64,000 bases of DNA from Ferruginibacter sp. (GTDB taxonomy: Bacteria; Bacteroidota; Bacteroidia; Chitinophagales; Chitinophagaceae), in NCBI GenBank assembly GCA_013141435.1, contig JABFQZ010000014.1, positions 49,792-113,791 of the forward strand. The letters are read 5' to 3'. The position numbers were made by a program, and so were the translations under genes. Below are positions 11,422-47,997 of the stretch, in pieces. The notes under the pieces were generated by a model that was not told where the DNA came from, ran no database searches, and worked only from the letters and a program-made list of their open reading frames with translations. Each line of letters opens with the position of its first letter. Within the stretch, counting starts at the first letter, position 1.

Positions 11422-11967
11422 TTAACTTATTGTTCTGGTTTTTATCATTTTTGCTGGAGTACCTTGGTAAATACCAAAGGGCAGGGTGCTTGAAGATAAA
11501 GTAGATGATGTAGATAAAATAGAATGCTGTGCACACACAACGCCACAGCAAACAACAGATTTTGCACAAAGCCAAACACCTTCTTCTATAACAATTGGCT
11601 TTACTATTAAATCGAAAGTTGTTTTAGTATAATCATGATTACCGCATAGTAACAAAGCACCTTGAGATATGCAAACATTGTTTCCAATGGTTACTTGTGC
11701 TAAATTATCTATCCACACTTCTTCGCCTATCCATACATTATTACCTATTTGCAATAACCAAGGATATTTGATACTTACATGTGGTTTTATTAAAACATTA
11801 CTACCCACTGTAGCCCCAAATAATTTTAATAAAAAAGTTTTTATTGCATAAAAAGGAAAAAGTCCACTACGAAAAAAAAATAAATTTATGTAATGCCACA
11901 AAAATCTTTTAATTACACTGCCAGGCTTATACCAATCATTATTGTATGTAGCTAAATCAAGTTTCAA
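11422..11967 (-). CDS. wcaF: WcaF family polysaccharide O-acetyltransferase
   Basis: IKYPWLLQIGNNVWIGEEVWIDNL, SQGALLLCGNHDY, hexapeptide repeats; TTG start. Confidence 0.88.
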   Translation of the reverse strand: MKLDLATYNNDWYKPGSVIKRFLWHYINLFFFRSGLFPFYAIKTFLLKLFGATVGSNVLIKPHVSIKYPWLLQIGNNVWIGEEVWIDNLAQVTIGNNVCISQGALLLCGNHDYTKTTFDLIVKPIVIEEGVWLCAKSVVCCGVVCAQHSILSTSSTLSSSTLPFGIYQGTPAKMIKTRTIS

Positions 11968-12520
11968 GGGTATTGTTTTTTATATTTTTTTCGTAAAAAT
12001 AAATCATAATGAAAATAGAAAGATAAGCAATAATATTAAACCAAGTGTGGTGATCTAAACCAAATGGAAACCGCCAAGCCTTATTAGCAGAAGCTAATAC
12101 CAAACTAATACGTACTACATTTATAACCCAAAGTAAAAATAAGCCAAAAAAAAGCCAATACAATTTTACTTTTATTTTTGCTGAAGAAGCTACAGTATAT
12201 GCTACCCAAAAACTCATAATTGCAAAGCCTAAGCATGCGTACACAATACGTACACCTCTGCCCCCTACTTTTCGTAATACGTACTCGTTTTCTCTAACAG
12301 TATCGGTACCAAAAAAAGAAACTACATATTTGGTGCCCCAAATTATTGATGTGCGTAACCATGCAGCAATATCGAAATATTTTTTTACAAACGGACTATA
12401 ATAGCCACCTGGCACAGCTAAGCCAGTAATAAAAAGCGTACCATAATAACAAAATAAATATATGGCAATAAAAACGAAAACGAATTTCAAAAACTTTTTA
12501 TTGGCTATAATTTTAAACAT
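11957..12520 (-). CDS. xrtY: Exosortase family transpeptidase (XrtY-like)
   Basis: 187 aa multi-TM protein with the exosortase/archaeosortase catalytic triad in context: VYAC*LG (Cys), INVVR*I (Arg), DH*H (His). Confidence 0.75.
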   Translation of the reverse strand: MFKIIANKKFLKFVFVFIAIYLFCYYGTLFITGLAVPGGYYSPFVKKYFDIAAWLRTSIIWGTKYVVSFFGTDTVRENEYVLRKVGGRGVRIVYACLGFAIMSFWVAYTVASSAKIKVKLYWLFFGLFLLWVINVVRISLVLASANKAWRFPFGLDHHTWFNIIAYLSIFIMIYFYEKNIKNNTLET

Positions 12521-12522
12521 TT

Positions 12523-13635
12523 TTATACAGAAAACATTTTTTGGTAAGCTTCCATTTTTGAGGCAGAGTTAGATTTTATTACTGAATAATTTTCTGCACC
12601 TTGTACAAATTGCAAATAGGTATCGTTATTCATTTTTGCAAAAATATTTAACGCCGTACATATTTCTACTTTGTTTGTTGCTACATTTATACCTGCTTTA
12701 TTTTCTAATAAATTTACCCAAGGAGTGTTATAGCTTGTGATTACAGGCTTAGCTGCTGCTAGAGCTTCGGCAATGGCATGGCCAAAATTTTCGCTTTTAC
12801 TTGGCATTATAAATAAATGATTTTTAGCAAGTACAGCTTCTACTTCTTTTGGTTGTATTTCGCCAAAATAATTTACATGTATATTTTTGGGCAAGTTTTT
12901 TATTTGCTCTAAACAATTATGCCAATATGTGGTATCTTTTATTGGACCATAAATATTGTAAGTAATATTTGCAGTACAATTTATCAATGCCTTTAAAACC
13001 AATAAATGATTTTTCATAGGGCTTATGAGTGCAATGGTAACAATGTGTAGGGAATTTTCAATTTTAACTAATGGTTCATTTTTTTTAACTTTTTTTGTAA
13101 AATTATTTGCCACAAATACTTTTGTGTTTTGTCCAAATTGGTTTTTAATAAAGCCATTTTCTACATCATCGGTAGCATGAAAAAAAACTTTTTTATTTAT
13201 ACCCCATAATTTTAATGCTTGTACAAAAAAACGTTTTTTCCATTTTTTTTGTGAGAGAGCACCTGGATGTAGCATACCTCTAACAGACAGAATTTTTTTA
13301 TAGCCAGTAGCAATTAATAATGGCATTATATTAAAATGCCAAGAAAATAAGCCTATTATAAAAAGCACATCGGCATTTGTTTCTTTAAGCTGCTTGCTTA
13401 AATTTTGTTTGCATTTTTTTTGGGATGTGTACCACACTTGGGTGTGTGAATTATAAATTATCCACTCATCTGTTATAATATTTTGTAGTGGCTCTCCATT
13501 CAAATCTTTATTACTACAAAAAATTTTATACTCTATATTGTCGGATAAATTATTTATTAGATTAGCAATAGATTGTATTGGACCGCCTGCTTTATATGCT
13601 GGAAGAAACCATGGTATGGATATAAAAACTTTCAT
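12523..13635 (-). CDS. Glycosyltransferase family 4, exosortase-adjacent
   Basis: PAYKAGGP N-terminus, SVRGML, PSKSENFGHAIAEA (ExxxxxxxE). Confidence 0.88.
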   Translation of the reverse strand: MKVFISIPWFLPAYKAGGPIQSIANLINNLSDNIEYKIFCSNKDLNGEPLQNIITDEWIIYNSHTQVWYTSQKKCKQNLSKQLKETNADVLFIIGLFSWHFNIMPLLIATGYKKILSVRGMLHPGALSQKKWKKRFFVQALKLWGINKKVFFHATDDVENGFIKNQFGQNTKVFVANNFTKKVKKNEPLVKIENSLHIVTIALISPMKNHLLVLKALINCTANITYNIYGPIKDTTYWHNCLEQIKNLPKNIHVNYFGEIQPKEVEAVLAKNHLFIMPSKSENFGHAIAEALAAAKPVITSYNTPWVNLLENKAGINVATNKVEICTALNIFAKMNNDTYLQFVQGAENYSVIKSNSASKMEAYQKMFSV

Positions 13636-15044
13636 GCCTCTATTTTTTTTAAAGGCATTTGTATATAAGCCATTATTTTTGGAAAAAAGAAAATTTTTAA
13701 AAGAAAAAATATCAGTAGGTTTACATAAAGCCTACCTATTAAAAAAATACTGTCGGATTCAAACGCAAATAATTCTAAATAAATAGCTCCAACTACTGCA
13801 AAATTAAATATATAATTATTAGAAGATTTTTTTATGAAATAAAAATAACTTTTGCCGTAAATAAAGCCAAGTATTAGCAAAGGTATATACATGCCAATGT
13901 ATCCAAAATCGATATATCCATCGGCAAAATATCCAAGGCTTACGGAAACTCCTTTCTTTATGCCCGCATATTGAATGCCAGTGTATTTAGATGCTCTAAC
14001 AGAAGCATCGTAAACCCCTTTATTTGGATTTAAAACCCTTGGGGTGAATACGAATGCAAGTGTAGAACCTAAATTTGCTCCATATTGATATGGAATAACC
14101 TTTGGCACTCTATCCATAGTTTTTGCAAGATGATATGTGTATTGTAGCCTATCTAAAAAGTTTTCGGTAGCCCCAGTAAAAGTACTTGCATTTTGATTTT
14201 CGGAAAGTTCTATTAGTTTATTTAAGGCATCGGCTTTTTCTACCTGAACCGATTGTGTTTTACTGCCTTTATTTAGAAATAAACGATATTCGCCTTTAAT
14301 ACTTGTCCAAAAAACACCAGCAAAAAATAATAGAATTAATGTAACAAAAGCGATGAGCATTTTATTAATTTTAATAATTGTAAGAAGGCTCAAAAGTAAA
14401 ATTGCAATAAAAAATATAATTGTTTTAAAATCGGAAAAATAACTGTAAAAGCCCATTACAAACTCTAAGGCACAAAAAATATAAAACTCTTTTCGTTTTC
14501 TATTTTTTAAAATACTTTGAAAACCAAATAATAAAAATAAAAACCATTTTATATTGCCAAGGCTAAATATAATTTGTGTAAGCGATGGTACTAAAAAAGC
14601 AATACCAGTTAAAGCATTCATTGCAACAAAACCTACTACATACGCTTTAAAAGTTTTGTCTATAGAAATTCTATCGGCATGTTTTTTAAGTTGGCTTAAA
14701 GAAAGTTTTGGTATTTTATTTTGGTAGTATATTATTGGCAAAAAAATAAATAATAAGCCTACGTATGATGATAGTATTGCATAATCGGTACTATCGGATC
14801 TGTAGTTAATATCATTACCAAGGTTATTGCTTTGCCAAACGCCTGCCGAAATTTGTAGAAAATGATATATTAATGTTATTGTAAATACTGAAGGCTTAAG
14901 AGGTTGCTGAAGATTATAAAAAAGAATATAAAAAAGTGCTAAGCCTACAAATAAGATTAAGCCATTTGTAAAAAAAAGTTGGCTTATTAATAGTAAAATT
15001 AAAAACCCTTTTGTGCCTTCGTCTAAATATACTTTTGTTCTCAA
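13632..15044 (-). CDS. Wzy/O-antigen-ligase-like integral membrane protein
   Basis: 470 aa, about 10-11 hydrophobic segments, a large periplasmic loop (about residues 250-370) and YIDFG motif; TTG start overlapping the upstream TGA. Confidence 0.65.
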   Translation of the reverse strand: MRTKVYLDEGTKGFLILLLISQLFFTNGLILFVGLALFYILFYNLQQPLKPSVFTITLIYHFLQISAGVWQSNNLGNDINYRSDSTDYAILSSYVGLLFIFLPIIYYQNKIPKLSLSQLKKHADRISIDKTFKAYVVGFVAMNALTGIAFLVPSLTQIIFSLGNIKWFLFLLFGFQSILKNRKRKEFYIFCALEFVMGFYSYFSDFKTIIFFIAILLLSLLTIIKINKMLIAFVTLILLFFAGVFWTSIKGEYRLFLNKGSKTQSVQVEKADALNKLIELSENQNASTFTGATENFLDRLQYTYHLAKTMDRVPKVIPYQYGANLGSTLAFVFTPRVLNPNKGVYDASVRASKYTGIQYAGIKKGVSVSLGYFADGYIDFGYIGMYIPLLILGFIYGKSYFYFIKKSSNNYIFNFAVVGAIYLELFAFESDSIFLIGRLYVNLLIFFLLKIFFFPKIMAYIQMPLKKIEA

Positions 15045-16222
15045 TTGTGGTTGATATTTTCAAAGTTCAAAAGTAAATTTTCTAAAGCAATACAATCATG
15101 TTGGTAACTGTACTCTTTTATTATTTGGGCTGACACTTGCCCCATTTGTGTTGCAGCATTTTTATTATTTACGAAATATTGCAAACATTTTGCCAAATCA
15201 TTTTTATTATTATTTTCAAATACAAATCCATTTACGTTATTTTCTACTAGGTTATTAACTGCACCGCATGCGCTGCTTGCAATTATTGCTTTGCCAGCTG
15301 CCATTGCTTCGTTTATTGCAAGCCCCCAAGTTTCGTTAGGTCCTTTTGATGGCAGTACAAAAACATTACATGCAGCATACAAGGCAGGCATAGACTCTTG
15401 ATTTTGAAAATCTAAAAAATGAATATTTGCTATATTTTCATACTCAAACTTCAACGAATTTTCCAAAATACCATTGCCTGCAAATATTAAATGACTTTCT
15501 TTATTTTTTAGTGCAGAAAAAACTGTGGCTAACAAATGTGGATGTTTTTTGGACTCTAACTTACCAGCAAATACAAATACCAAGGCATTGCTTGGTATTT
15601 GTAAATTGGTTCTAATTTTTAATGCCACATTGCTATTTTTCTCACTTTCTGCAAATCTTTCATTATCTATTGCATGTGGCATAAATACTAGTTTATCATT
15701 TTTTAAGCCATGGGCTAAAAAATATGCTTTGTTGGCATTACCAGTATACAATGCAAAATCTATTTTGGTGTAAATAAATTTTAATATTTGTCTTCTAATT
15801 ATTTTTTTAACTCCTTTTTTTTCATCTAATAAAGTTGAATCTCCTCTAAATAAAACAGGAATTTTACCTTTAAAAAATCGCATTGCATTAAAATGGCTTA
15901 TAAAACTCCATCCATAAACCAATACAACATTTGCTCCCCAATCTTTAATTTCACTTATCAGTGTTGGGTTATTAATTCCTTTATAATGATGAGAGCCAGG
16001 CTTAGTAGAAATATTATTTACAAAACAATAATCGTACCCTTGCAATAAAGGAATATCCCATTTTATTTCTTTGCCAAAACCTGGGTCGTATTTAATGCCA
16101 TCTTGAGATTGACTCCAAGTATAAAATACTTTTAGTTCAATATTATTTCTCTCATTTAATAATTTAAAAAATGGAGCATTGTATTGAATGGGGTGAGTAG
16201 ATATGATAGCAAGTTTTTGCAA
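15041..16222 (-). CDS. Glycosyltransferase family 4
   Basis: KLAIISTHPIQY, FRGDST, VFAGKL, LPSKGPNETWGLAINEAMA. Confidence 0.9.
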   Translation of the reverse strand: MQKLAIISTHPIQYNAPFFKLLNERNNIELKVFYTWSQSQDGIKYDPGFGKEIKWDIPLLQGYDYCFVNNISTKPGSHHYKGINNPTLISEIKDWGANVVLVYGWSFISHFNAMRFFKGKIPVLFRGDSTLLDEKKGVKKIIRRQILKFIYTKIDFALYTGNANKAYFLAHGLKNDKLVFMPHAIDNERFAESEKNSNVALKIRTNLQIPSNALVFVFAGKLESKKHPHLLATVFSALKNKESHLIFAGNGILENSLKFEYENIANIHFLDFQNQESMPALYAACNVFVLPSKGPNETWGLAINEAMAAGKAIIASSACGAVNNLVENNVNGFVFENNNKNDLAKCLQYFVNNKNAATQMGQVSAQIIKEYSYQHDCIALENLLLNFENINHN

Positions 16223-17509
16223 TTATATTGTAGCTATAGTTTCATCTAATAATGAAGCAAGTTTTTTTGTAACTTCAAAAGCTGAATACTCATTAAATAA
16301 CTCAGTATTTACTTGTTCTTTTTTAAATGTGTGTAAAAACTTTTTATATCCCAAAAAAGAATGGACAAAAGATTTTTTTATATTTTCTACATCATTCTCA
16401 CCATTAAAATCAATTACTACACCAACGTTAGAATCTTTTATAACTTTTACCGCACTGCTTTGAGCATGCAATACAGCAAATAAAGATTTGCCAGAAAGTA
16501 TTGCTTGATAAACTTTACTTGGAGTATAATGTGGCTCTGTACTTCCCAAAATAAATACAGCATCTGCAATATTTAAGTGTACCAATACATCTAAATAAGG
16601 AATACGAGCAGGATATTCAAAAACAATTAAATTCCATAGCCCATATTTTTCGGCTAAAGGTTTTATATTATAACTTTCTGCATCATTTGTTCTTTTGCCA
16701 GTGCCTATAAAATGAAATTCTACAGTTTCAAATAATGCATTGTTTTCTGATATTGCTTCAAATATTTTCTCTAAGGGCTTATAAGCCTTGGGCAACATTG
16801 CCCCTGCATATACAAATTGCAATTTGTTCGTATTCTTTTTAAAAAGATTTGGTTCTATATTTAATGATTTAATTATTTCATGATCTTTTGCTTCGCCTCC
16901 ATAAGGCATTGCACCAGTTATAACATTTTTAAGATGCTGATTTCTATTAAGCACTGGTTGATAGTAGCCTTCGGCTACACCAGTTATAAGCGATGCTTTT
17001 TTTACTGCAATTGGTTCTAAAAATTTTGCAAGTTTTGTGCTAAGCCAGTGCCTGCTAAATATTTTTTCGCTGCCAGGGAAAGTGTGTACCCATGGATCTA
17101 TGTAATCTATACCGTATTTTATTTTAGTTTTACCATATAGCATCCTACCAAGCAAGGCACAGTAAAAAGAAGGTATAGGGATATATAAAAAATCAAATTT
17201 TTCTGTACACAATAATTCTTTTGCTTTTTTATATAATTGAAAAAATGCACGCAACCCTATATCGCCAAATAGTCTTATTTTTTTTGTAGAAAATGCATTA
17301 ACTTTTACAATTCTTAAATTTAAAGGCAATAGTTTTTCTAAATTATAATCTAATTTTTCTTCATAAAAATTTTTATGAACTGTTAATATAGTAGGCTCCC
17401 AACCAAATGTTGGTAAATGTTGGGCAAATAGCCTAGCCCTATGCACTCCTGCAAGGTTAGATGGTGGAAAATGTGGGTAGAGGATAAGGATTTTTTTGTT
17501 ATCTATCAT
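16223..17509 (-). CDS. GT-B fold (GT4-like) protein
   Basis: ILILYPHFPPSNLAGVHR, DYIDPW, FVYAGA, TPSKVYQ; atypical C-terminal motif. Confidence 0.65.
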   Translation of the reverse strand: MIDNKKILILYPHFPPSNLAGVHRARLFAQHLPTFGWEPTILTVHKNFYEEKLDYNLEKLLPLNLRIVKVNAFSTKKIRLFGDIGLRAFFQLYKKAKELLCTEKFDFLYIPIPSFYCALLGRMLYGKTKIKYGIDYIDPWVHTFPGSEKIFSRHWLSTKLAKFLEPIAVKKASLITGVAEGYYQPVLNRNQHLKNVITGAMPYGGEAKDHEIIKSLNIEPNLFKKNTNKLQFVYAGAMLPKAYKPLEKIFEAISENNALFETVEFHFIGTGKRTNDAESYNIKPLAEKYGLWNLIVFEYPARIPYLDVLVHLNIADAVFILGSTEPHYTPSKVYQAILSGKSLFAVLHAQSSAVKVIKDSNVGVVIDFNGENDVENIKKSFVHSFLGYKKFLHTFKKEQVNTELFNEYSAFEVTKKLASLLDETIATI

Positions 17510-18642
17510 TGTAAAAAAGAGTGTACCTTATCCATAATATCTGTATAAGTTGGGGCGGTATTTTGTATTTTTATTACTTCTTCTTTGTATTTTTTGCAAG
17601 CATCAATATTATAAGCCAAATCGCTTATCAAATTAGCCATTTCTTCTGCTCCACTACAAGTGGGTATATTACCTTCTTTCCAAAGATAGCCACGCAATCC
17701 TATTTCTGATGTAATTACAGGCATACCATAACTTAATGATTTACCAAGTTTAGTACTCACACCTCTTGAATAATAAAAAACTGGGTTCAAGGCAAATGTC
17801 CAGGTTGAAAATTCAGCTAACAGATTTTCATTAGATAAATATCCTAGATATTTAACAAACTTAAATCTTTGCTCCAAATTTTCTCCACGCTCTTTGCCTG
17901 CACCTGCTAATTGTAGTTGAATATTTGAACAATTATTTTTTTGTAAGCATTCGCACACCTGAAGAATTCCGTAATAGTTAGGTTCATGACTAAGATCTGA
18001 AAAAAATCCAACCTTACCCAATACAGGGTTGTATGGTATTTGCATTTTATCAATATACCTTGGCACCATAAATACCTTTGTAGCACCAAGCCATTTTTCT
18101 ATACCAACTTCTACATCTGACACAGTTAAAACTAAGTCTATTTCTGTTCTTAAAGTTGCTTCCATTTCTAGCATTTTACCAAGCGAAAAAGTTGCAAATA
18201 TTTTTTTTATTCCATTGTATTTTTGATGTTTTACCAGTTCGTGCAAATAATCTCCACTTTCATTACCATGCGAACAAAGAATTACTTTTACATTATTATC
18301 TATGTCTTTAATCAGTTTAGCAAAAACTGTTGTATTAGTTAAATTCAAAAAAATAAATTGTATTTTATTTTCATTTATAATTTTTACAATGGTTTCCTTA
18401 AAAGAATTTACATCATAGTCATTATATGAGCTTATAGCAAGTTTCTTTGATAATTTGTAAAAAAAACTTTTTGAATAGGTAACTGGTAAGTATAATAAAT
18501 TAAACTTTGTGGACAATAGAGTGATGTACTCATTTGTGCAAAATTTTACTCCTCCCTCATTAGAATTGGAGTTCAAAAATTTTTCATTACAAATAAAAAG
18601 TGCTTGATTTGAATTCATTACTTTTCTACCAATTTCTATCAT
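17506..18642 (-). CDS. GT-B fold (GT4-like) protein
   Basis: C-terminal LAGAG...GYL...GVSTKLGKSLSYGMPVITSEIG resembles Glyco_trans_1_4; alternative ATG at 18618. Confidence 0.65.
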   Translation of the reverse strand: MIEIGRKVMNSNQALFICNEKFLNSNSNEGGVKFCTNEYITLLSTKFNLLYLPVTYSKSFFYKLSKKLAISSYNDYDVNSFKETIVKIINENKIQFIFLNLTNTTVFAKLIKDIDNNVKVILCSHGNESGDYLHELVKHQKYNGIKKIFATFSLGKMLEMEATLRTEIDLVLTVSDVEVGIEKWLGATKVFMVPRYIDKMQIPYNPVLGKVGFFSDLSHEPNYYGILQVCECLQKNNCSNIQLQLAGAGKERGENLEQRFKFVKYLGYLSNENLLAEFSTWTFALNPVFYYSRGVSTKLGKSLSYGMPVITSEIGLRGYLWKEGNIPTCSGAEEMANLISDLAYNIDACKKYKEEVIKIQNTAPTYTDIMDKVHSFLQ

Positions 18643-19342
18643 TTACAAACTCAGAATCTTTTTTTATATACATTACATCCATTTGATACATTGCTCTGTC
18701 AAAAGGTCTTCGCATAAATTGTGTAATATCATATACTTGAAAACCTTGGGCATCCATAAAATTGTTTAGCTCTGTAAATAATACATCATTATCTCCTAAT
18801 TTTATTAATGTAACTTCAAGTAAACAAATTTCTACATTAGCAAGAACATTTAAACAACCCTTGAGTACTTCTATTTCATGCCCTTGTACATCTAACTTTA
18901 AAAAATTAGGATATGTAATATTTTTTTCAGATAGAATAGTGTTTAATGATTTTGTTTTTACAATTTTTGTAGAATTAAGATCAATAATATTTGAAAAATT
19001 TATATGACTTGCTGTTTCATTTTCATAAAAATTCACTTCCAAATTATCGTCTGACGAAACCAATGCTATGATATAATCAATATTTTTATTTTTTAATAAC
19101 TTTAAAATAGATTCTTTTTGGGGCTGTGCTTCTATCATCAATATATTTGATTGAGGATAAACTTCTAAAAAGTCTTTTGTCCATCCACCTTCATAAGCAC
19201 CAATATCTACCACTTGTGTTGGGTTGAATCCTTTTTTCTTAAGATTTTGCAAGCTCCAATGTAATGATGGTACTCCTAAATGTTCTTTTACTGAACGCTT
19301 AAATGAAAATGGAAAAATACTTTTTATAAACTTAGTTATCAC
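18626..19342 (-). CDS. FkbM family methyltransferase
   Basis: VVDIGAYEG, MIEAQ, FLKLDVQGHE; GTG start. Confidence 0.88.
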   Translation of the reverse strand: MITKFIKSIFPFSFKRSVKEHLGVPSLHWSLQNLKKKGFNPTQVVDIGAYEGGWTKDFLEVYPQSNILMIEAQPQKESILKLLKNKNIDYIIALVSSDDNLEVNFYENETASHINFSNIIDLNSTKIVKTKSLNTILSEKNITYPNFLKLDVQGHEIEVLKGCLNVLANVEICLLEVTLIKLGDNDVLFTELNNFMDAQGFQVYDITQFMRRPFDRAMYQMDVMYIKKDSEFVNDRNW

Positions 19343-21692: not shown

Positions 21693-22418
21693 CTACTTTT
21701 TCTCGAAATAAAAATTTCTTCCATCTTCCAAATCAATTACTTTCTCAAATTTGCTTTTTGCTAGTAATGTAAATATTTCTTCACATTTATCTTCCCCTAA
21801 AATAGATGGATGCAATTCAAATTGAACTTTTTTAATACTTTGAAAATTAATTATTTTAAAAATATCATACTCCCCTCCTTCTATATCCATTATAAGAAAA
21901 CTAGGTTTAATCTTACTAATGATTTCATTTATATTTAATTTTTGTAAATGTATATTTTCATTATTAATATTGATACTTACCGAAGACGCAAGCCTACTTT
22001 TTTTATTTATAGAAAAATTTGTAGCCCCATTATCATTTGCCAATAACGCATTGGTAATATTAGGACTAACATTATTTTTTTTGAAAACCTCTCTAGCTTT
22101 TACAATGTTTAATGGATTAGCTTCGTAAGTATGTACATTGTTAGAACCTACAATTGTTGAACAATAGGAAGATATAAAACCCAATCCTGTGCCTATTTCC
22201 ATGACAACATCTTGCTTACTTATTTTTTGGCTAACAATAGTATATTCTCCCATTTCATATTGCCCATTTACAATCCACCTTAGTGTATTAAACCCAATAC
22301 TAAATTGTAAAGGCATATAAATACCTTGCACTAATTTCCATGAATTACCTATTATATACCTGTATAAAACATAAGTAAGTATATATAACTTGTATAACCA
22401 AAAACTAATTCTATCCAT
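21693..22418 (-). CDS. FkbM-like methyltransferase
   Basis: VMEIGTGLG, YEANP, LIMDIEGGE; ATG at 22418 or TTG at 22424. Confidence 0.82.
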   Translation of the reverse strand: MDRISFWLYKLYILTYVLYRYIIGNSWKLVQGIYMPLQFSIGFNTLRWIVNGQYEMGEYTIVSQKISKQDVVMEIGTGLGFISSYCSTIVGSNNVHTYEANPLNIVKAREVFKKNNVSPNITNALLANDNGATNFSINKKSRLASSVSININNENIHLQKLNINEIISKIKPSFLIMDIEGGEYDIFKIINFQSIKKVQFELHPSILGEDKCEEIFTLLAKSKFEKVIDLEDGRNFYFEKK

Positions 22419-23013
22419 TTCCAATATTCGTCTTATTTTTTACATCAATTTTCAATTGCTGGTTACAAGTAACCACACAATCATCAGGTATTGATTTATA
22501 AACTAAACAATTTGCACCAATTACAACATTATTACCAATTGATACATTTTTTAGTATAATAACATTAGCACCAAACCAACAATTATTGCCAATTTTTATT
22601 TTACCAGTATTCCAGCCTTGGCTTGAGATTAAAACATCTGCATTTTTATAATTATGATTTGCATCATAAAACTTTACTGCTTCACCAAACAAACAATCAT
22701 TTCCTATTGTAATTTCATCAAAACAATTTATAGAACAATTGCTATTGAAGAATACATTATTACCAATTGAAAGTTTACTATCGCAACCAGAACGTATGAT
22801 ACAATAATCTCTAAACGTTACACTATTTCCAATTTGTACTAAAGAATTTGAAATATCAAAATTCAACGAAAATAAATTTCCAAAATCAAATCCACTTTTT
22901 AAATAAAATCTATTTTTATAAAGCGCTTTCCACTCTACTATTTGTAGTTTTTTAAATTGAATATCTATCAATTTATATATTCTATTCTTTGCTTTAAAAA
23001 TAAATCTTAGCAT
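22411..23013 (-). CDS. Acyltransferase, hexapeptide-repeat (LbH)
   Basis: IGNNVFFN, IGNDCLFG, DANH, IGNNCWFGANVIILKNVSIGNNVVIGA. Confidence 0.88.
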   Translation of the reverse strand: MLRFIFKAKNRIYKLIDIQFKKLQIVEWKALYKNRFYLKSGFDFGNLFSLNFDISNSLVQIGNSVTFRDYCIIRSGCDSKLSIGNNVFFNSNCSINCFDEITIGNDCLFGEAVKFYDANHNYKNADVLISSQGWNTGKIKIGNNCWFGANVIILKNVSIGNNVVIGANCLVYKSIPDDCVVTCNQQLKIDVKNKTNIGNG

Positions 23014-31560: not shown

Positions 31561-32124
31561 TTATCTTTTTTTTATAAATTTTGCTGGCACACCTCCTACA
31601 ATAGTGTATGATTCTACTGATTTATTAACTACACTTCCTGCTGCTACTATTGCTCCTTTTCCTATAGTAACACCATCTAATATTTGACATCCAGCACCAA
31701 TCCATACATCATCTTCAATACGGATTCCTTTATAATTTTCTCCTTGCAATTTTATTGGGATATCTTTTCTATCAAATTTATGATTGGCCGGTATTATTAC
31801 ACAATGTGCTGCAATTAAAACATTATCTCCAATTACTACTCCTTTTCCATGTCCATATATTATTGTATATGGATTTATACTACAATTATTTCCAATTTTT
31901 ATACTACCGCCATTTGTAATCAATAAACTACCTATACGAAATTCATTACCGTTACCAATACTAATTGTTCCTGAAAGCGGATTTTCAAAAATTACAAAAT
32001 CATCAATTCTATTATTAGATCCAATAAAAATATTCTTAAGTTTATATTTAGATTGCAAATTTTTATAACCCAATCCTGGGTTAAACATTATCAGTTTAAT
32101 TTTCTTTATTATTTTATTTAACAT
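31561..32124 (-). CDS. Acyltransferase, hexapeptide-repeat (LbH)
   Basis: IGNNCSINP, IGDNVLIA, PANH, IEDDVWIGAG, VGGVPAK. Confidence 0.9.
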   Translation of the reverse strand: MLNKIIKKIKLIMFNPGLGYKNLQSKYKLKNIFIGSNNRIDDFVIFENPLSGTISIGNGNEFRIGSLLITNGGSIKIGNNCSINPYTIIYGHGKGVVIGDNVLIAAHCVIIPANHKFDRKDIPIKLQGENYKGIRIEDDVWIGAGCQILDGVTIGKGAIVAAGSVVNKSVESYTIVGGVPAKFIKKR

Positions 32125-36584: not shown

Positions 36585-36664
36585 TTTATTTTCCACTAAG
36601 TTCACGAAGTGAATTTATGAATTATTCGATACTATAAAAACCATATTAATTTAAGGCCAAATAA

Positions 36665-40718: not shown

Positions 40719-41219
40719 TTAAATAATGCATTTCTCCAAATTTGATCTTTCTATAATGGCTGTAATGGCTATACCCATTGATTCTAATTTTACTTTTGCT
40801 TTATTGCCAAATATTTCTACAATTATTCCTTTATAGTTCATCAAAACGCCTTTCTTTACCTCTACATTTTCATTAATACCTGCATCTAAATTATTTACTT
40901 CTACTTCGTCAAATTCATTTAAAAATTTTCTGATATTATCTATTTCCGAATTTTTTACTACTGCAGGTTTACCTAACCAATACACATAGTTTAAAATACC
41001 ATCTACCATTTTTAAATCCCATTTATTTTTTGTTTCGGGGCATACAAAAACGTAGCCTTTAAATAATGGCACTTCTATTATCTTTTTTCTATCGCTCCAT
41101 TGTTTTTCTATTTTATTTAATGGACAATAATGTTCTATTTCTTTTTTCTCAAGGGCAGCTGCAATTTTTTTTTCCCATCTTGGTTTTGTATAAACTACAT
41201 ACCATTTTTTTTCCAACAT
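40719..41219 (-). CDS. upxY: UpxY family (NusG paralog) transcription antiterminator
   Basis: WYVVYTKPRWEKK, WSDRKKII.VPLF.GYVFV, C-terminal KOW. Confidence 0.93.
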   Translation of the reverse strand: MLEKKWYVVYTKPRWEKKIAAALEKKEIEHYCPLNKIEKQWSDRKKIIEVPLFKGYVFVCPETKNKWDLKMVDGILNYVYWLGKPAVVKNSEIDNIRKFLNEFDEVEVNNLDAGINENVEVKKGVLMNYKGIIVEIFGNKAKVKLESMGIAITAIIERSNLEKCII

Positions 41220-41352: not shown

Positions 41353-43794
41353 TTATTTAAAACTTTGTTTTCGTTTAAATAATTTTTTCAAAAAACCTAC
41401 AAACCCAAAAATATTTTTGTACCCAGGCATGCCACCATCGGCAGTATAATAACTTCCTGCTTCGCTACCATAACCATAGCCGTATCCATAACCATAACCG
41501 TAGCCATAGCCATAGCCATTTCCATAACCGCCAAATCCAAAATTAAAGAACGATGCTCCTCTTGGTTTTACACCATTAAACACTACACACATACCGTTAA
41601 ACTTTTTTTCTTTTTTCAAGCTATCGGCAAGTTTTAAAAATACCGATGGTGTTACATCATGCCTAACTACATAAATAGTAATACCTGCATAAATATTTAA
41701 TAATTGAGAATCGGTAACTGGCCCAATAGGTGCAGAATCTATAATAATATAATCGAATCTGTTTTTTAATTCTGTTATCATTTCTCCAAACTCGGTTTTG
41801 CCTATAAGTTCTGTAGGGTTTGGTGGTATTGGACCTGCGGTTACCAAAAATAAATTATTGTAAGCAGTAGGTTTTATAATTTCATCTAAAGATGATTTTC
41901 CAATTAAATAAGAAGATATACCTGGATCTCTTTTTATACCAAGCTCTTTACTAAGTTTTGGTTTACGAAGATCCATTTCTAATAATGCAACTTTTTTTCC
42001 CGTAAGGGTTATGCTTAATGCAAGGTTTGTAGCTACAAAACTTTTTCCTTCGCCAGATATACTTGAGGTAACTAAAATAGTTTTATTTTTTTCGTTAAGC
42101 CCCATAAAACCTAAGTTGGTTCTTAAAGAACGGAATTGCTCTGCAATTACTGTTCTTTTCCCTTCGGTAATTGCAATATTATTTTTATCTGGTGTTTGTA
42201 TTATTTCTCCTATAACTGGTATTTTGGTTTTATTTTCTATTTCATTTCTAAATAAAACTTTGCTGCTCAAAGGCTCGTTTAATTGTACAAATAAAAGAAA
42301 ACCTAATAAGCCTAAAAGCAAACCCATTAAATAATAGTTTTTAGCAATTGGGCGTATTGGCCCATACGAATATCCATTTTCTAAAACTCTTAAATCGGCC
42401 GAAGTAGATGCAGATGATATGGCTGTTTCTTCTCTTTTATTTAAGAGAAAAGTATATATATTTGTTTTAATGGCTCTTTGTCTGCTAACTTCTAAAATTG
42501 CTCTTTCTTTGCCAGGTAATTGTGAAAGTAAGCTGCTGTTTTTTGCAATATTAGCTGTTATACTATTTTTTTCTAACTGATAATTATTTCTTACATTATT
42601 TATGTTTTCTTTAATATCATTTTTTATACGAACAACTTTTTCGTTAGCAAGTAGTACTGTTTCGCTTTTATCTCCATTTGTAGCTTTAACCTTATCTAAA
42701 TCAAATTCGGCAGTGTATAATTGATTTAAAAGATTACCCAACAATGGGTCGCTCACCATTTGTGTAGCAGGCACTGTACCTGGGTGCCTGCCCTTACTAT
42801 TTACATAACTTTGCACACCCGATAGTACATCTAATTGCAATTCTATCTCTGTTTTTTTCTGATCTAAATCTTTTACTACACTAGCATATTGTTCTCCTTG
42901 TACCGACACATCAGTTATCCCTTCTCTTGCCCTAATGGCTGCTTCACTTCTTTCTACACTATCTAAATCTGCTGTTACTTTTGCTAGCCTATCATCTACA
43001 AATTTTAGTGTTCGTAATGCTATTTGATTTTTATCTTCTATACCAACAATGTTATATATCTCAAATAATTTATTCAAAATTTTAATGCCTTTTTCGGGCA
43101 CTGGTGTTTCTATACTTACATTAATAACTGTAGATGAAAACGATAAAGGTGAAGCATTTATAGAGCCTGCAATAGCTCCAGATACGGATCCTAAATCATT
43201 AAAAATTACAAAATAATTTTTACCAATTACATTTTTACTGTAGGATTCGTTTATTACTATCTTATAATTAGTTCCATTAATATTTACAATATCTAAAAAG
43301 TTATATACTGTTTTATTTAATTTAATGGTATTGTTTTTCCAATTAATATCAAGTGTAAATTTCCCTCCGCCATTTATAGCACTATCCTTATTTACTGCTA
43401 CAAAATATAAAGGAGCATTGTTACCATACAATTCTTCGGTTTGTACTTTTCCTTCATTATACAAAGTTGTATAAAGGTCTAATTGTTTTACTACATCTTG
43501 CATTAAAGAGGTAGATTTTAAAACCAATATTTCGTTTTCTACAATTTTTTTTTCGCCAAAAATATTTAATGCCTCTAGAACTTTACTATCACTTCCTCCT
43601 TTTTGGGGATCTTTTAATAATACTTTTGCCGCAGCTACGTATATTTTTGTTTGCGATCGTAAATAAATAAAAGCAACAGATAATGATATGGCTAATAGAA
43701 TGGCAAGCAATGGCCAAAAAGGCAAATATCGATGTACAATTTGTACCAAAATATTTGCTTGGGGTTTATCTTCAAAAAATTGATCTTCGCTCAT
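41353..43794 (-). CDS. wzc: Polysaccharide biosynthesis tyrosine autokinase Wzc
   Basis: Two TM segments around a coiled-coil periplasmic region, EQFRSLRTN, Walker A SGEGKS, DLRKP, IIDSAP, C-terminal (GY)8 Tyr cluster. Confidence 0.95.
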   Translation of the reverse strand: MSEDQFFEDKPQANILVQIVHRYLPFWPLLAILLAISLSVAFIYLRSQTKIYVAAAKVLLKDPQKGGSDSKVLEALNIFGEKKIVENEILVLKSTSLMQDVVKQLDLYTTLYNEGKVQTEELYGNNAPLYFVAVNKDSAINGGGKFTLDINWKNNTIKLNKTVYNFLDIVNINGTNYKIVINESYSKNVIGKNYFVIFNDLGSVSGAIAGSINASPLSFSSTVINVSIETPVPEKGIKILNKLFEIYNIVGIEDKNQIALRTLKFVDDRLAKVTADLDSVERSEAAIRAREGITDVSVQGEQYASVVKDLDQKKTEIELQLDVLSGVQSYVNSKGRHPGTVPATQMVSDPLLGNLLNQLYTAEFDLDKVKATNGDKSETVLLANEKVVRIKNDIKENINNVRNNYQLEKNSITANIAKNSSLLSQLPGKERAILEVSRQRAIKTNIYTFLLNKREETAISSASTSADLRVLENGYSYGPIRPIAKNYYLMGLLLGLLGFLLFVQLNEPLSSKVLFRNEIENKTKIPVIGEIIQTPDKNNIAITEGKRTVIAEQFRSLRTNLGFMGLNEKNKTILVTSSISGEGKSFVATNLALSITLTGKKVALLEMDLRKPKLSKELGIKRDPGISSYLIGKSSLDEIIKPTAYNNLFLVTAGPIPPNPTELIGKTEFGEMITELKNRFDYIIIDSAPIGPVTDSQLLNIYAGITIYVVRHDVTPSVFLKLADSLKKEKKFNGMCVVFNGVKPRGASFFNFGFGGYGNGYGYGYGYGYGYGYGYGSEAGSYYTADGGMPGYKNIFGFVGFLKKLFKRKQSFK

Positions 43795-43807: not shown

Positions 43808-44611
43808 TTACTTTATTATTCTGCTCAAAATTATTATAACAAGCGATACAACCGATGCTACTAAAGATAAGTTGGTTTGCAATTTTTTCTTATTTTCTTC
43901 TTTTACATATTTTACATTATCTGCAGCTACAATAATAATATCGTTTGGTTTTGCATAATACCAGCTCGATGTAAAAATGGAATGATCTTCTAAATTGATA
44001 TGTTTTACTTTTTTCTGATTTCCTTCTTCTCTAATTACTGTAATGTTATTTCTTATTGCATTTGGTGTTACATCTCCACTCAAAACCAAAGCATCTATTA
44101 TAGAAATTTGTTCTTCGGGCATATTTAATACCTGAGGTTTGCTTACCTCTCCTAGTATTGTAATTTTATGATTTAGGTAATTTACAGTAACTATAGGCTC
44201 TTTGGTATATGGCAACAACCCATTCTCAATTTTTTTTGATAACTCCTTTCTTGTAAGTCCTTCGGCTACGATGGCTCCGAGCCTATGCAATAATATTGTA
44301 CCATCTTGTTGTACTAAATAGCCTGCTGTAGTTGCTAATGATGAAGTGCTAGCTGGGTTATTAAAAAATGCATCTTCAGATGGGCTCAAACTGCTTACAG
44401 ATATTGAAATTTTATCGCCTTTTATTATTTTAGATTCGTAATCGTTAGATACAAAATTTTGTAAAGTTGTATCTTTTTGCAGAGTTTTGAAATAAGATCC
44501 TTGGCTTGTAACCTTGCATGAGGATAAAGATAAAATTGCAATATAAATCAGTAATACATTTATATACAAAATACACTTACCACTCACAGAATGTGGGTAT
44601 TTATTTTTCAT
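43808..44611 (-). CDS. wza: Polysaccharide export lipoprotein Wza
   Basis: Lipobox LSSC, GDKISISV, ILGEV.KP, DALVLSGD, PNDIIIV. Confidence 0.92.
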   Translation of the reverse strand: MKNKYPHSVSGKCILYINVLLIYIAILSLSSCKVTSQGSYFKTLQKDTTLQNFVSNDYESKIIKGDKISISVSSLSPSEDAFFNNPASTSSLATTAGYLVQQDGTILLHRLGAIVAEGLTRKELSKKIENGLLPYTKEPIVTVNYLNHKITILGEVSKPQVLNMPEEQISIIDALVLSGDVTPNAIRNNITVIREEGNQKKVKHINLEDHSIFTSSWYYAKPNDIIIVAADNVKYVKEENKKKLQTNLSLVASVVSLVIIILSRIIK

Positions 44612-44797: not shown

Positions 44798-44809
44798 ATT
44801 GTACTTAAT

Positions 44810-47467
44810 TTAGTATTTTACTAATCTGGTTGTTTTTCTTTCTCCATCATCATTACTTGCAGTTATGGTATATGTACCAGCATTTATATTTTGAAAAAGT
44901 AGGTCTATAGAGTTATAACCTGCAATAACATTTATGGTTTGTGTAGCTACAATTTTACCCACTATATCTGCCACTGTAATAATATATTTTCCTGCTTTTG
45001 CACTAGTTAAGGCTAATACAGCATTTCCTTTTGAAGGATTAGGGGTAACATTTATAAGTTCAAAACCTTTTTCGTTATTTAAAAGTACTACAATTGTACT
45101 GTATCTTAATGAGCCGTTAGTTTCAATTACTTTTAAACGGTAATAATTTTTGCCTGCAAACGGATTAGCATCAGTGTAGCTAAAATCTTGCAAACAACGA
45201 GTTGAAGTTGCTGTTTCATCGTATACAGTTTTAAAATTAATTCCGTCAGTACTACGTTCCAATACCAATAATAATATTGAAGAACTTATAGCATTTACTT
45301 TCCAATTCAAATAATTTCCAAAACTACTTTTACTTCCTCTAAAAAATTCGATACCTACTGGCAGAACGGTGGTTGGCCCCACTCCGCTTGCATAAGTACC
45401 TCCACTAAAACTTGTAAGGCCATTAAACTGTGCATAAAGTACTCCATTTATTGTAGCAGCCCCAGTATTTGCATCTGTAAGTGGTATTGCATTTAAAACT
45501 AAATCGGAATTTACATGAGCAGCATCACCAACAAAAGAACCAGATGTAGTTTTAAACCAACTTGATGGTTCTAAGATACTACCAGTATTAGTAGCTTGAA
45601 AGGCAATAGCTGCGGCATCTGTAGCTGTTTTTTCGGCGGCATTGTAAAAGAAACGAACATTTACTGGAGTTGTAGGTTGTACGCCAGCCACATCTATATT
45701 CCAATATCTTTTCATAGTAAATGTACCTTTTGCTGTAGCACCACTACCAGTTGTAGTTGCGTAATCTGTGGCATCGTATGTAAGTGTAGCTGTAGCTGCT
45801 GCTTTAGATGCAGTGTTTGAACCCCACTCTACAGCTAATACATTTTTATTAGATGCATCGTTGTAATAAGTCCAACCTAGGTCTTCACAATTATTTGTAA
45901 GGGTATATGTATTTACAACAGTTTCTAATGCTACATTATTTGTTGGTAATCCTTCTTCTATGGTTATATCATCTAAGCCAAATGCATTACCATATTTACT
46001 TACACCTTCAAAACCAATTTGTATAGTTTGCCCTGCATAAGCACTTAAATCTACTATATTTTTACTCCAAATTGGTGCCGCATTTGCGGTTAATGTGGCA
46101 TCATGCCTTTGTAAACCAGCACCTATATTTAAAATATTTTTCCTTACCCATGTAATGCCTTTATCTACAGATACAGATACGTACATACTATCCAATTCTG
46201 GGAGTGTTGTTGTATTATCATGGCTCATCCAAAAACTTACTTGGTAAGGGCAACCAGTAGCTGGTATGGCAAAACAATCGCTAAAATACTTACTACTAAA
46301 ACCACTAGAGCTTGCGCCAGAGTAGGAATCGAACAGCATAAATTTGGTGCCACTATGTGCATTTAAAGCAGCTGTTTGATCTGTGTTTGTATATGCAGTA
46401 CTTCTTATACCCCATAACTGCCGAGTACCTGAAATTGTACTTACCCATTTAAAACTATTTAAACCTGTGGTTTCTACATCTTCTAAACTTGGAAAAGTAG
46501 AAATGGTAGGTGTAGTAATTACTGAAGTTGTACCATTATTATCAGATGTATTTGTATCACCTGCTAAACTAATAGATACTGAGAAATTACTTGTACCTGC
46601 ATTATTTAAATTGATACCTGTAAAAGTTACAGTACCTGTAGCCCCAGGCGCTATAGCTGTAGTGTTGCTAGCTGTATAAGTACCAGTATTTGCTGTAGTT
46701 ACAGTAAGGGTTAAAGTAGCATCGCCAATATTTATGGTAGATGTACCCCTATTGGTAATAGTAGTAGTAATACTTTGGGTAGTGGCATGGCAAGAAAATG
46801 TAGGAAAATTGCTAAACCCTACATACGCAGCATCGTTTGGTATTTGATGTGCAAAATAAACCATTGGCCTAAAGCCACTTCCAACTAAATTTGTAGTGCC
46901 TGAAACTGGCGCACTAGTACCACTAAATCTTCTGGATGTAAGATGAGTAGTTGTTGCCAATGCATCGTTAGCGTTTCCTATAGATGCATTCCATAAAATA
47001 CCAGTGCCAGACGCTGCAGTAGTTCTTTCTAATAATATCTGCACATTATCTGAGCCTACTGTACGTACAAATGGAGTAGTTAAGTTTACATAATTCCAAC
47101 CAACTGCATTGGCAACTAGTGTACCACTATATACCAATGTATAACCTGTAGTAGAATATATTCCTGAAGCCATATCAGTAGTTGATGCTGGTACTTCTTT
47201 TAAATAAATATTGTACCCAGCAAAAGAAGTAACAGCGGCTACGGTTGCCAAATTAAATCCTATTCTGTTTATTGCAGTCCCAGCAGTCAAAAAATTTGTT
47301 GACCCTACCTCCGATGATAAATATATAGCTTCGTTGGCATTAAAACTAGAAAGACCAGTAACAATATTGCCACTAGTACCTGGCCATACTGTAATGGAAG
47401 ATGATTGTGCAATTGCAAAAGAATTTAGTATAAATACTAATGCAATAAAAAGTAGATTTTTTTTCAT
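44810..47467 (-). CDS. T9SS type A sorting domain-containing surface protein
   Basis: Sec signal ending AIA-Q, CARDB/Ig-like segment, adhesin-like FGLDDITI segment, LPV..F..G Ig module, C-terminal PNPSKG...DIVGK...AGTY...LVK sorting domain. Confidence 0.88.
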   Translation of the reverse strand: MKKNLLFIALVFILNSFAIAQSSSITVWPGTSGNIVTGLSSFNANEAIYLSSEVGSTNFLTAGTAINRIGFNLATVAAVTSFAGYNIYLKEVPASTTDMASGIYSTTGYTLVYSGTLVANAVGWNYVNLTTPFVRTVGSDNVQILLERTTAASGTGILWNASIGNANDALATTTHLTSRRFSGTSAPVSGTTNLVGSGFRPMVYFAHQIPNDAAYVGFSNFPTFSCHATTQSITTTITNRGTSTINIGDATLTLTVTTANTGTYTASNTTAIAPGATGTVTFTGINLNNAGTSNFSVSISLAGDTNTSDNNGTTSVITTPTISTFPSLEDVETTGLNSFKWVSTISGTRQLWGIRSTAYTNTDQTAALNAHSGTKFMLFDSYSGASSSGFSSKYFSDCFAIPATGCPYQVSFWMSHDNTTTLPELDSMYVSVSVDKGITWVRKNILNIGAGLQRHDATLTANAAPIWSKNIVDLSAYAGQTIQIGFEGVSKYGNAFGLDDITIEEGLPTNNVALETVVNTYTLTNNCEDLGWTYYNDASNKNVLAVEWGSNTASKAAATATLTYDATDYATTTGSGATAKGTFTMKRYWNIDVAGVQPTTPVNVRFFYNAAEKTATDAAAIAFQATNTGSILEPSSWFKTTSGSFVGDAAHVNSDLVLNAIPLTDANTGAATINGVLYAQFNGLTSFSGGTYASGVGPTTVLPVGIEFFRGSKSSFGNYLNWKVNAISSSILLLVLERSTDGINFKTVYDETATSTRCLQDFSYTDANPFAGKNYYRLKVIETNGSLRYSTIVVLLNNEKGFELINVTPNPSKGNAVLALTSAKAGKYIITVADIVGKIVATQTINVIAGYNSIDLLFQNINAGTYTITASNDDGERKTTRLVKY

Positions 47468-47495
47468 AATTTATATATAAAGGATTATTAATAAC

Positions 47496-47503
47496 CAAAT
47501 ATA
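47496..47503 (-). promoter_or_regulatory. -7 element for the T9SS cargo gene
   Basis: Minus strand TATATTTG, 28 nt upstream of the ATG at 47467. Confidence 0.45.
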
Positions 47504-47784
47504 ATTAAAATTTTATAAATAACATTGATTAGCTTTTTTCAAAGTATGGTTTTACTTTAGAAGTATTTTAAAACTTTACAAGGAAAGTTATCACAGAAAA
47601 GCCTTTAAATTAAAATAATATCAAAACTTTAACCACATAGATTCACATATATTTTCTATTGTTTTTCTATGTAACTATCTGTTATATATCATACAACTTT
47701 TAAAATTTATTCTACTAAATTATGGACACTGAATAGTTTCTATGATGTAAGCTTTTACTAATTGTGTAAGAAAGAAAGAAATAT

Positions 47785-47997
47785 TTATTGCAATTTTAAA
47801 ATTGTATTTTTACTAGTATTAAAATCATAAGCTTTTTTTGCGGCTATAACTACAGATGCTGCTATAAGTAAAACTACACCATTGTCTATGGGGCAAGGAT
47901 CTGCTGGGTCGGTACAAGGATCATCTGGGTCTTGCGCATGCAAATTTAAAGGAAAACAAATTGCAATTAAAAATAAAAAAGCCAATAATTGTTTCAT
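47785..47997 (-). CDS. Small PID-CTERM protein-sorting domain peptide
   Basis: Signal peptide (1-21), QDPDDPCTDPADPC, then PIDNG, a hydrophobic helix and KK. Confidence 0.78.
   Translation of the reverse strand: MKQLLAFLFLIAICFPLNLHAQDPDDPCTDPADPCPIDNGVVLLIAASVVIAAKKAYDFNTSKNTILKLQ

Follow-up and report, generated by a model that had tools for sequence, protein, structure and literature searches.

An exosortase gene and a PID-CTERM-type peptide gene at the two ends of a surface-polysaccharide locus in a Ferruginibacter-like bacterium

Exosortases were predicted in 2006 and are found in many environmental bacteria. To our knowledge, neither the acceptors of these enzymes nor whether they are transpeptidases at all is known. 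A set of Cys, Arg and His residues defines the family, and transpeptidation is suspected (10.1101/2023.06.07.544157). Within the Bacteroidota, the exosortase XrtF (Fjoh_1448) of Flavobacterium johnsoniae is required for surface colonisation and biofilm formation (PMC10936215), and PorU links protein C-termini to a sugar amine of anionic lipopolysaccharide (A-LPS; PMC7468200). Here we describe a 64-kb stretch of DNA from Ferruginibacter sp. (contig JABFQZ010000014.1, positions 49,792 to 113,791; hereafter the window), which holds a 38-kb surface-polysaccharide cluster of a drinking-water, Ferruginibacter-like member of the Chitinophagaceae. The gene for a tiny peptide heads this locus and an exosortase gene lies in its tail. 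The pair recurs in related bacteria and is of a kind known from computation only: the best specific models for the exosortase, the peptide and the glycosyltransferase adjacent to the exosortase are those of the XrtY/PID-CTERM/XYAG1 system (NF046083, NF046080 and NF046085). The concept is not new; what stands out is the smallness of the substrate, its fixed position at the head of the locus and its experimental tractability.

A preliminary description of this DNA had named two open reading frames (ORFs) as enzyme and substrate. Both exist exactly as it described them, and they are listed here with the element that precedes the smaller one.

47785–47997, minus strand: PID-CTERM-type mini-protein, 70 amino acids (aa); signal peptide 1–21 (cleavage predicted between LHA and Q), exported core Q22–C35, PIDNG 36–40, transmembrane (TM) helix about 41–53, KK 54–55, tail 56–70
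48022–48029, minus strand: putative Bacteroidetes-type -7 promoter box TATTTTTG (TAnnTTTG), 25 nt 5' of the peptide ATG
11957–12520, minus strand: XrtY-like exosortase, 187 aa; putative catalytic Cys96, Arg137 and His157/158

Is the small ORF a gene, and does it encode a substrate? Its product reads MKQLLAFLFLIAICFPLNLHA up to the predicted cleavage site and QDPDDPCTDPADPC-PIDNG-VVLLIAASVVIAA-KK-AYDFNTSKNTILKLQ beyond it, and thus has the expected layout: an N-terminal signal peptide and a tripartite C-terminal signal, in which a PID motif abuts a TM helix that a basic cluster follows. The KK with which the peptide had been said to end is present, but the tail is longer, running 15 residues past the KK and 12 past the match to the PID-CTERM model. 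The 70-aa ORF holds the sole PID-type tail in the six frames of the window. Among six orthologous peptide genes the proportion of synonymous differences (pS) is saturated at 0.55–0.91, that of nonsynonymous differences (pN) is 0.10–0.23, and dN/dS, where calculable, is 0.06–0.18. In 8 of 10 orthologous loci the start codon is preceded, at 20–30 nt, by a TTAnTTTTG-like box, which fits TAnnTTTG, the consensus of the Bacteroidetes -7 promoter element. Given this purifying selection and the conserved promoter box, we infer that the small ORF is translated and independently expressed.

An exhaustive profile search with the peptide family, run against 1.84 billion representative proteins, returned at least 301 clusters at E ≤ 0.001, of which the best 150 are 52–122 aa long. 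The ORF therefore encodes, as had been proposed, a real and conserved sorting-signal peptide of the PID-CTERM type. In its 15 close homologues the signal peptide varies but ends in AQ, and all have an invariant core (D-P-C-T-x-P-x-D-P-C-P-x-D), the helix and AAKK(A/T)Y, and 10 of them match NF046080 at E ≤ 0.1 (best E 1.8e-5). Ten sampled distant members of the family, which carry PIDGG-type motifs, all pass the cutoff of that model (28–40 bits), from which it follows that the window peptide represents a divergent subgroup of genuine PID-CTERM proteins. In 159 of 164 family members P[IVLF]D abuts a TM helix that is followed by basic residues (PID itself in 132), and in 133 of the 164 the signal peptide ends in AQ. 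Under the Bacteroidetes Q-rule, an N-terminal Gln is cyclised to pyroglutamate (PMC5837995); with the AQ ending, this leads us to predict an N-terminal pyroglutamate.

What cargo does the sorting signal carry? Across 133 family members the exported segment has a median length of 15 residues (range 10–44) and consists of 25% Pro, 19% Asp and 11% Cys, with hardly any basic residues. The number of Cys is even in every one of them (2 in 103, 0 in 21, 4 in 7 and 6 in 2), which points to disulfides, and a Cys stands directly before the PxD motif in 105. No Ser, Thr or Asn is conserved: 83 of the segments contain Ser or Thr, 2 contain N-x-S/T, and 4 have the O-glycosylation motif of Bacteroidetes. 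Judged by its sequence, the cargo is merely a short, rigid, acidic peptide, and the one reactive handle that it offers throughout the family is the C-terminus predicted to be made by the exosortase. These PID-CTERM ‘proteins’ are nearly pure sorting signal. We also considered whether the peptide is a lipoprotein and rejected the idea, there being no lipobox and the first Cys lying 7 residues past the predicted signal peptidase I site. The predicted cytoplasmic tail follows the pattern KK(A/T)Y(D/S)(F/Y), whose Tyr never varies within the close subfamily, though it does across the wider family; the same locus encodes a BY-kinase and a PHP phosphatase.

The 187-aa protein passes TIGR04178, the signature of the exosortase/archaeosortase superfamily (31.4 bits, cutoff 23), with relatives scoring 31–44 bits. 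Its best specific model, NF046083 (exosortase Y), matches at 120 bits (E 9.3e-35) over model positions 1–167 of 168. This is more than 60 bits ahead of XrtX (55 bits), which is followed by XrtF (TIGR04128, 22 bits). An alignment of 34 sequences shows no variation at Cys96, Asn134, Arg137, His157 or His158. The earlier reading of this protein as an exosortase, with its Cys-Arg-His triad, is thus confirmed. AlphaFold2, supplied with the alignment, gives a helical, membrane-type model (pLDDT 92, pTM 0.85) with helices at 8–35, 51–69, 94–111, 116–147 and 157–185 and a small sheet at 74–91; the putative catalytic residues Cys96, Arg137 and His157/158 are placed at helix ends or inside helices. No relative was found in the Protein Data Bank (PDB), the best E values being 2.1 with Foldseek and 0.3 with hidden Markov models (HMMs). 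We conclude that, by sequence, the protein belongs to the exosortase family, with catalysis predicted.

How widespread is this enzyme? Relatives occur in 249 species-representative genomes, and the 80 exosortase loci that we retrieved all come from Chitinophagaceae or related Bacteroidota (Ferruginibacter, Ginsengibacter, Hanamia, Niastella and others). Scores of 97–135 bits on NF046083 were obtained for 17 sortases of the clade, the window protein included, all below the cutoff of 160 yet far above those on every other exosortase model; since all 17 stay under the XrtY cutoff, we regard them as a sister clade of XrtY and not as XrtY proper.

If enzyme and peptide form a pair, how are their genes arranged? 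Downstream of the peptide gene lie the following.

44810–47467, minus strand: type IX secretion system (T9SS) cargo protein, 885 aa, with Por_Secre_tail; a variable insert between peptide and Wza, not core
43808–44611, minus strand: Wza-type outer-membrane polysaccharide export protein (Poly_export, SLBB); always one or two genes 3' of the peptide
41353–43794, minus strand: Wzc-type polysaccharide co-polymerase (PCP) and BY tyrosine autokinase (TIGR01007, 149 bits, cutoff 108)
40719–41219, minus strand: UpxY-family transcription antiterminator, heading the biosynthetic operon (NF033644, 130 bits, cutoff 100)

The peptide adjoins Wza–Wzc in 13 of 13 loci. It stands at the head of loci with the order Wza–Wzc–UpxY–epimerase–AsnB, either directly 5' of Wza or separated from it by the T9SS protein. 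A metagenome scan with the peptide yielded seven loci, of which four are real and show the same context; the other three are high-GC false positives. The two genes never lie side by side: in none of the 80 species loci does a peptide homologue or a PID-type tail occur less than 10 kb from the exosortase gene. A search with Wza was used to find contigs that also hold the exosortase gene, with these positions.

JANNMO010000017.1: peptide at about 70.3 kb, exosortase at about 36.5–37.0 kb, distance about 33.5 kb
3.97-Mb contig: peptide at about 826.3 kb, exosortase at about 780.3 kb, distance about 45.6 kb
Ga0654651_0000059: peptide at about 51.7 kb, exosortase at about 17.1 kb, distance about 34 kb

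In the window itself the two genes are about 36 kb apart. On all four contigs on which both ends of the locus are visible, the window included, the peptide gene is at the head, the exosortase gene in the tail, and both are on the same strand, so that the proposed tie of peptide and exosortase to one glycan locus holds wherever it can be read (4 of 4). A further contig, JBBJLU010000007.1, ends 683 nt 5' of Wza and is unscorable for the peptide. When 1.4 Mb of related loci were scanned with a domain-only HMM, the sole matches were the orthologous head-of-locus peptides; the signal is therefore specific, and there is apparently one substrate per locus. The substrate gene thus marks the head of the locus and the enzyme its tail.

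The tail is tightly packed. Its genes are given below in the order of transcription, with their frequency among the 80 fetched loci; smaller denominators are the loci with enough flanking sequence.

16223–17509, minus strand: 428-aa protein that matches no family; in many relatives it belongs to the 3' cassette, and it is present in 27 of 80 loci
15041–16222, minus strand: GT4 glycosyltransferase of the 3' cassette, 393 aa; 5' of the exosortase gene in 42 of 50 loci
13632–15044, minus strand: 470-aa polytopic membrane protein, remotely Wzy-like (polymerase or ligase superfamily); 5' of the exosortase gene in 28 of 50 loci
12523–13635, minus strand: GT4 glycosyltransferase, 370 aa, XYAG1-like (top model XrtY-associated XYAG1, far under its cutoff); 5' of the exosortase gene in 62 of 67 loci, directly adjacent in 48
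11957–12520, minus strand: the exosortase
11422–11967, minus strand: WcaF-family acetyltransferase (NF007797, 207 bits, cutoff 192); its start overlaps the exosortase stop by 11 nt
10275–11042, minus strand: GT2 glycosyltransferase, 255 aa, conserved tail; 3' of the exosortase gene in 49 of 51 loci
9532–10275, minus strand: CpsB/Cps4B-type PHP tyrosine phosphatase (PF19567, 160 bits), final gene of the locus and partner of Wzc; 3' of the exosortase gene in 48 of 51 loci

The order GT4–exosortase–(acyltransferase)–GT2–CpsB is conserved and co-directional across the 80 species loci, and the cassette is present in the cultured strains Ferruginibacter yonginensis CECT 8289 and Ginsengibacter hankyongi BR5-29. 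The slot directly 3' of the exosortase gene varies; it is filled by WcaF in 45 of the 80 loci, by a carbamoyltransferase in one (L102, 10561–12285), and in many by nothing or by other genes. All along the window cassette start and stop codons abut or overlap, which suggests a single operon.

What is the 470-aa protein? It scores 17.9 bits on TIGR04370 (cutoff 40), a weak match; 8 of 23 members of its family match that model (best E 2.3e-6) and 1 of 23 matches PF14296. It has no Pfam match, a profile search of the PDB gave chance matches only, and its single-sequence AlphaFold model (pLDDT 42.6) is unusable. By sequence we call it remotely Wzy-like and no more. The curated models named in the preliminary description do exist for the exosortase, the peptide and the adjacent GT4 (NF046083, NF046080 and NF046085 XYAG1), but no XrtY-associated Wzy model was matched. 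For the 428-aa protein there was no match in Pfam, NCBIfam or PDB sequences; its N-terminus resembles a GT-B glycosyltransferase.

How might such a pair operate? We propose that it is a dedicated exosortase–substrate pair built into a Wza/Wzc-type polysaccharide locus, and that the C-terminus of the peptide is passed to an acceptor made by that locus. The peptide would be exported by Sec and cut by signal peptidase I after LHA, before Gln22. Its new N-terminal Gln would become pyroglutamate and Cys28 and Cys35 would form a disulfide, while the C-terminal helix would keep the peptide in the inner membrane, its KK tail lying on the cytoplasmic side. The exosortase, if it acts as sortases, ArtA and PorU do, would recognise the PID motif at the membrane surface and remove the helix via a thioacyl intermediate on Cys96. 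The new C-terminus of an acidic peptide of about 17 residues (pyroGlu-DPDDPCTDPADPCPID) might then be handed to a nucleophile from the same locus, likeliest an amine on the polysaccharide or on a lipid-linked precursor, and the peptide-tagged polymer would presumably leave through Wza.

We favour a locus-made acceptor because the two genes are constant components of a single polysaccharide locus, and because a GT4 gene is almost always the operon neighbour of the exosortase gene. Since no Ser, Thr or Asn is conserved in the exported peptide, it is more plausibly attached by its C-terminus than glycosylated on a side chain. Our confidence in the proposal as a whole stops a little short of calling it probable, since two of the alternatives considered below, transfer to lipid and simple release, fit the sequence data almost as well. 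Its more specific form, in which the peptide itself is the product, transpeptidated onto an amino sugar of the polysaccharide or lipid-linked precursor as a cap or tether on capsule or exopolysaccharide (EPS), is conceivable but rather doubtful.

Several points weigh against the transfer of the peptide to a locus-made acceptor. A gap of 33–46 kb between sortase and substrate is unusual for a dedicated pair, and the evidence for their co-occurrence is at the level of contigs (four of them), not of whole genomes. A scan against the curated models, which the preliminary description had proposed, put the right families on top, but all three scores are below cutoff: the exosortase misses the 160 bits of NF046083; the peptide matches NF046080 over residues 36–58 at 21.7 bits (E 1.3e-4) and misses its cutoff of 26; and GT4 12523–13635, whose top match is NF046085 XYAG1, reaches 76 bits where 400 are needed. 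NF046080 also fails to detect the paired peptides of three related loci (L098, L100 and L101). A free amine on the glycan is not readable from the genes, and hydrolytic release or a lipid acceptor is equally consistent with the sequence data. The sequence was found only in DNA metagenomes from drinking water, biofilters and wastewater, and in no RNA runs. Finally, literature searches for PID-CTERM, XrtY and exosortase Y gave false matches only, so that the system is defined computationally and not by experiment; no paper was found that mentions the systems of NF046083, NF046080 and NF046085.

What else could the exosortase do with the peptide? It might transfer the C-terminus to a membrane lipid such as phosphatidylethanolamine, as is thought for ArtA/PGF-CTERM and rhombosortase/GlyGly-CTERM. 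The outcome would be a tiny acidic lipopeptide that works alongside the capsule machinery, serving for instance as its anchor or nucleation point, and is not bonded to glycan. Lipid is the sole documented type of acceptor in related or analogous systems (10.1101/2023.06.07.544157; PMC7157517), and the evidence for the pair and its locus serves this explanation equally. Yet it leaves unexplained why both genes are so strictly embedded in a single polysaccharide locus and why GT4 and exosortase genes are so tightly adjacent (48 of 67 loci), and family scans of the cassette showed no lipid-modifying gene; we consider lipid anchoring unlikely. To the same degree we doubt that the exosortase simply hydrolyses the peptide, whether to free a disulfide-looped acidic peptide or to remove a bitopic modulator of Wza/Wzc assembly or activity. 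That one-step transpeptidation has been shown for no exosortase (10.1101/2023.06.07.544157) speaks for hydrolysis, as does the position of the peptide, always beside Wza–Wzc and not beside the sortase, and the cytoplasmic tail often carries KK(A/T)Y near a tyrosine-kinase/phosphatase system. However, the Tyr of that tail is not conserved in the wider family, the most conserved part is the exported DP/C core with the PID motif, which suggests that the core is the functional product, and the Cys/Arg/His chemistry is of the transpeptidase type.

Might the glycan instead be joined to a side chain? The preliminary description had the adjacent GT4 and the ligase-like protein link or prime the glycan on the peptide. 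In this scheme the GT4 and the 470-aa protein would build and ligate the glycan by a PglL-like O-oligosaccharyl transfer, and the exosortase would only trim the anchor. The remote likeness of the 470-aa protein to Wzy is in its favour, as is the invariance of Thr29 in the close subfamily, and, as the locus has an ABC exporter but lacks a Wzx flippase, the role of ligase makes more sense than that of polymerase. But just 83 of the 133 exported cores contain Ser or Thr, hardly any has a known glycosylation motif, and the 470-aa protein is missing from 22 of 50 exosortase loci with enough flank. Enzymes of the GT4 family (GT-B) use nucleotide-sugar donors and are hence presumed to be cytoplasmic, whereas the core of the peptide is periplasmic. 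The idea found no support in our analysis, neither a conserved acceptor nor a suitably placed GT4, and we think it improbable; a peptide–glycan conjugate, if one is formed, would more plausibly arise via the exosortase-made C-terminus. More improbable still is the absence of any functional link, with the ORF encoding a small Wza/Wzc-region membrane protein that has nothing to do with the exosortase, whose own substrates would be encoded elsewhere or nowhere. The genes are indeed 36 kb apart, the PID-CTERM model scores below cutoff, and the substrate search covered loci and not the whole genome. Against this, the family profile ties the ORF to proteins that pass the PID-CTERM cutoff, the best model of the sortase is the cognate XrtY, both genes lie in one locus on 4 of 4 informative contigs, and 1.4 Mb contained no other candidate tails.

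Why would transfer to a locus-made acceptor matter? A single tiny substrate, traceable by mass spectrometry, is co-encoded with its presumed enzyme and with polysaccharide machinery, which makes the question of the acceptor directly testable. If the conjugate does form, it would join a ribosomal peptide to a polysaccharide and would reveal the first acceptor for a bacterial exosortase.

The further features of the locus are these.

48401–48435, minus strand: terminator-like hairpin, 16 bp, 3' of the aconitase gene; upstream boundary of the locus
17506–40559, minus strand: variable biosynthetic middle, with family matches to a GDP-fucose-synthase-like enzyme, an AsnB-like amidotransferase, a DegT aminotransferase, PglD/NeuD-like and hexapeptide acyltransferases, three FkbM and one class-I methyltransferases, and multiple GT2, GT4 and GT-D-like transferases
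35724–36605, minus strand: Wzm, within the variable middle
32114–33364, minus strand: Wzt with Wzt_C, within the variable middle

The window has a G+C content of about 30%, and all substantial ORFs between 9532 and 47997 are on the minus strand, with housekeeping genes on both flanks of the locus. Read along that strand, the head consists of aconitase, the hairpin, the 70-aa ORF, the T9SS cargo, Wza, Wzc and the UpxY antiterminator. There follow the GDP-fucose-synthase-like gene, the AsnB-like gene, a GT4, Wzm, acyltransferases, the DegT aminotransferase and Wzt with Wzt_C, and then a long series of GT2, GT4 and GT-D-like transferases and FkbM methyltransferases that ends at the 428-aa protein and the cassette. 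The closest relatives of the window are Ferruginibacter and other Chitinophagaceae, and identical proteins are present in the metagenome-assembled genome GCA_040079375.1 and in drinking-water metagenomes. An Rfam scan of the window gave no matches.

The UpxY antiterminator sits 3' of Wza–Wzc and not at the very head of the locus, and for this reason the peptide gene, the T9SS gene and Wza–Wzc are probably transcribed apart from the long biosynthetic operon. A T9SS-secreted protein of 885–1004 aa, with a weak MAM-like hint, lies between peptide and Wza in L005, L007, L092, L094 and L101 and is absent from L009, L091, L098 and L100; missing in 4 of 10 related loci, it was ruled out as a component of the system. 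On the 3.97-Mb Ferruginibacter contig (L100) a 266-aa ORF with no family match on record occupies the place between the peptide gene and Wza (8861–9661).

Neither a Wzx flippase nor an initiating phosphoglycosyl transferase turned up in family scans of the locus proteins, which gave no Bac_transf- or MraY-like match. The locus unites an ABC exporter (Wzm and the Wzt_C-bearing Wzt) with Wza/Wzc and the remotely Wzy-like protein, possibly for two glycans. Three FkbM-family methyltransferases (18626–19342, 21693–22424 and 30693–31559, all minus strand) occur alongside the Wzt_C-bearing Wzt, and by analogy with some O-antigen systems the exporter may recognise a methyl-capped chain end. A 314-aa ORF at 25955–26899 (minus strand) has no Pfam or NCBIfam family match.

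How does this locus compare with the systems already described? PorU offers a Bacteroidota precedent for joining the C-terminus of a protein to the amino group of a sugar, one that comes from a Wbp-type pathway including an AsnB-like amidotransferase (PMC7468200). It is, however, an unrelated enzyme of the outer membrane that acts on a folded C-terminal domain, and the analogy is mechanistic only. In ArtA/PGF-CTERM (PMC7157517) and rhombosortase/GlyGly-CTERM (PMC3237569), as proposed here, removal of a C-terminal helix is coupled to a new anchor, and ArtA shares its Cys, Arg and His residues with the window exosortase. Both differ in acting on large surface proteins, in using a lipid as acceptor and in not being embedded in a polysaccharide locus.

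PEP-CTERM/XrtA of the Proteobacteria (EpsH; PMC1569441) resembles the window in general plan: the EPS locus that contains the exosortase gene also encodes a Wza/Wzc-type exporter, a tyrosine kinase and an AsnB-like amidotransferase, and the sorting motif abuts the TM helix. The window differs in having PID in place of PEP, a single tiny substrate in place of many full-size proteins, and a short sortase of 187 aa. Its proteins also fall short of the XrtA-associated models (amidotransferase TIGR03108, 367 of 817 bits; kinase TIGR03018, 122 of 231; glycosyltransferase stp2, 66 of 409). XrtF is found in the same phylum and is similarly short, and its substrates are unknown or unlike PEP-CTERM. The window sortase, however, reaches only 22 of the 90 bits required by TIGR04128, and the partner of XrtF is the ‘exosortase F system-associated protein’, with no PID peptide and no such cassette; judged by sequence, XrtF is a more distant relative of the window sortase than XrtY.

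Nearest of all is XrtY/PID-CTERM, which is homologous to the window system and presumably alike in its workings. The two systems share the tripartite signal of PID motif, TM helix and basic residues, and those distant relatives of the peptide which clear the PID-CTERM cutoff are just as small. They differ in motif, PID[SN][NGD] in the window clade and PIDGG in PID-CTERM, the comparison being one of models and not of canonical locus layout, and the window proteins stay below all three cutoffs (120 of 160, 21.7 of 26 and 76 of 400 bits). The failure at all three cutoffs indicates a sister clade of the XrtY system that standard annotation would miss. With three paired peptides overlooked by NF046080 and the sortases below cutoff, the current curated models miss both partners, and an entire clade of the system in the Chitinophagaceae escapes them.

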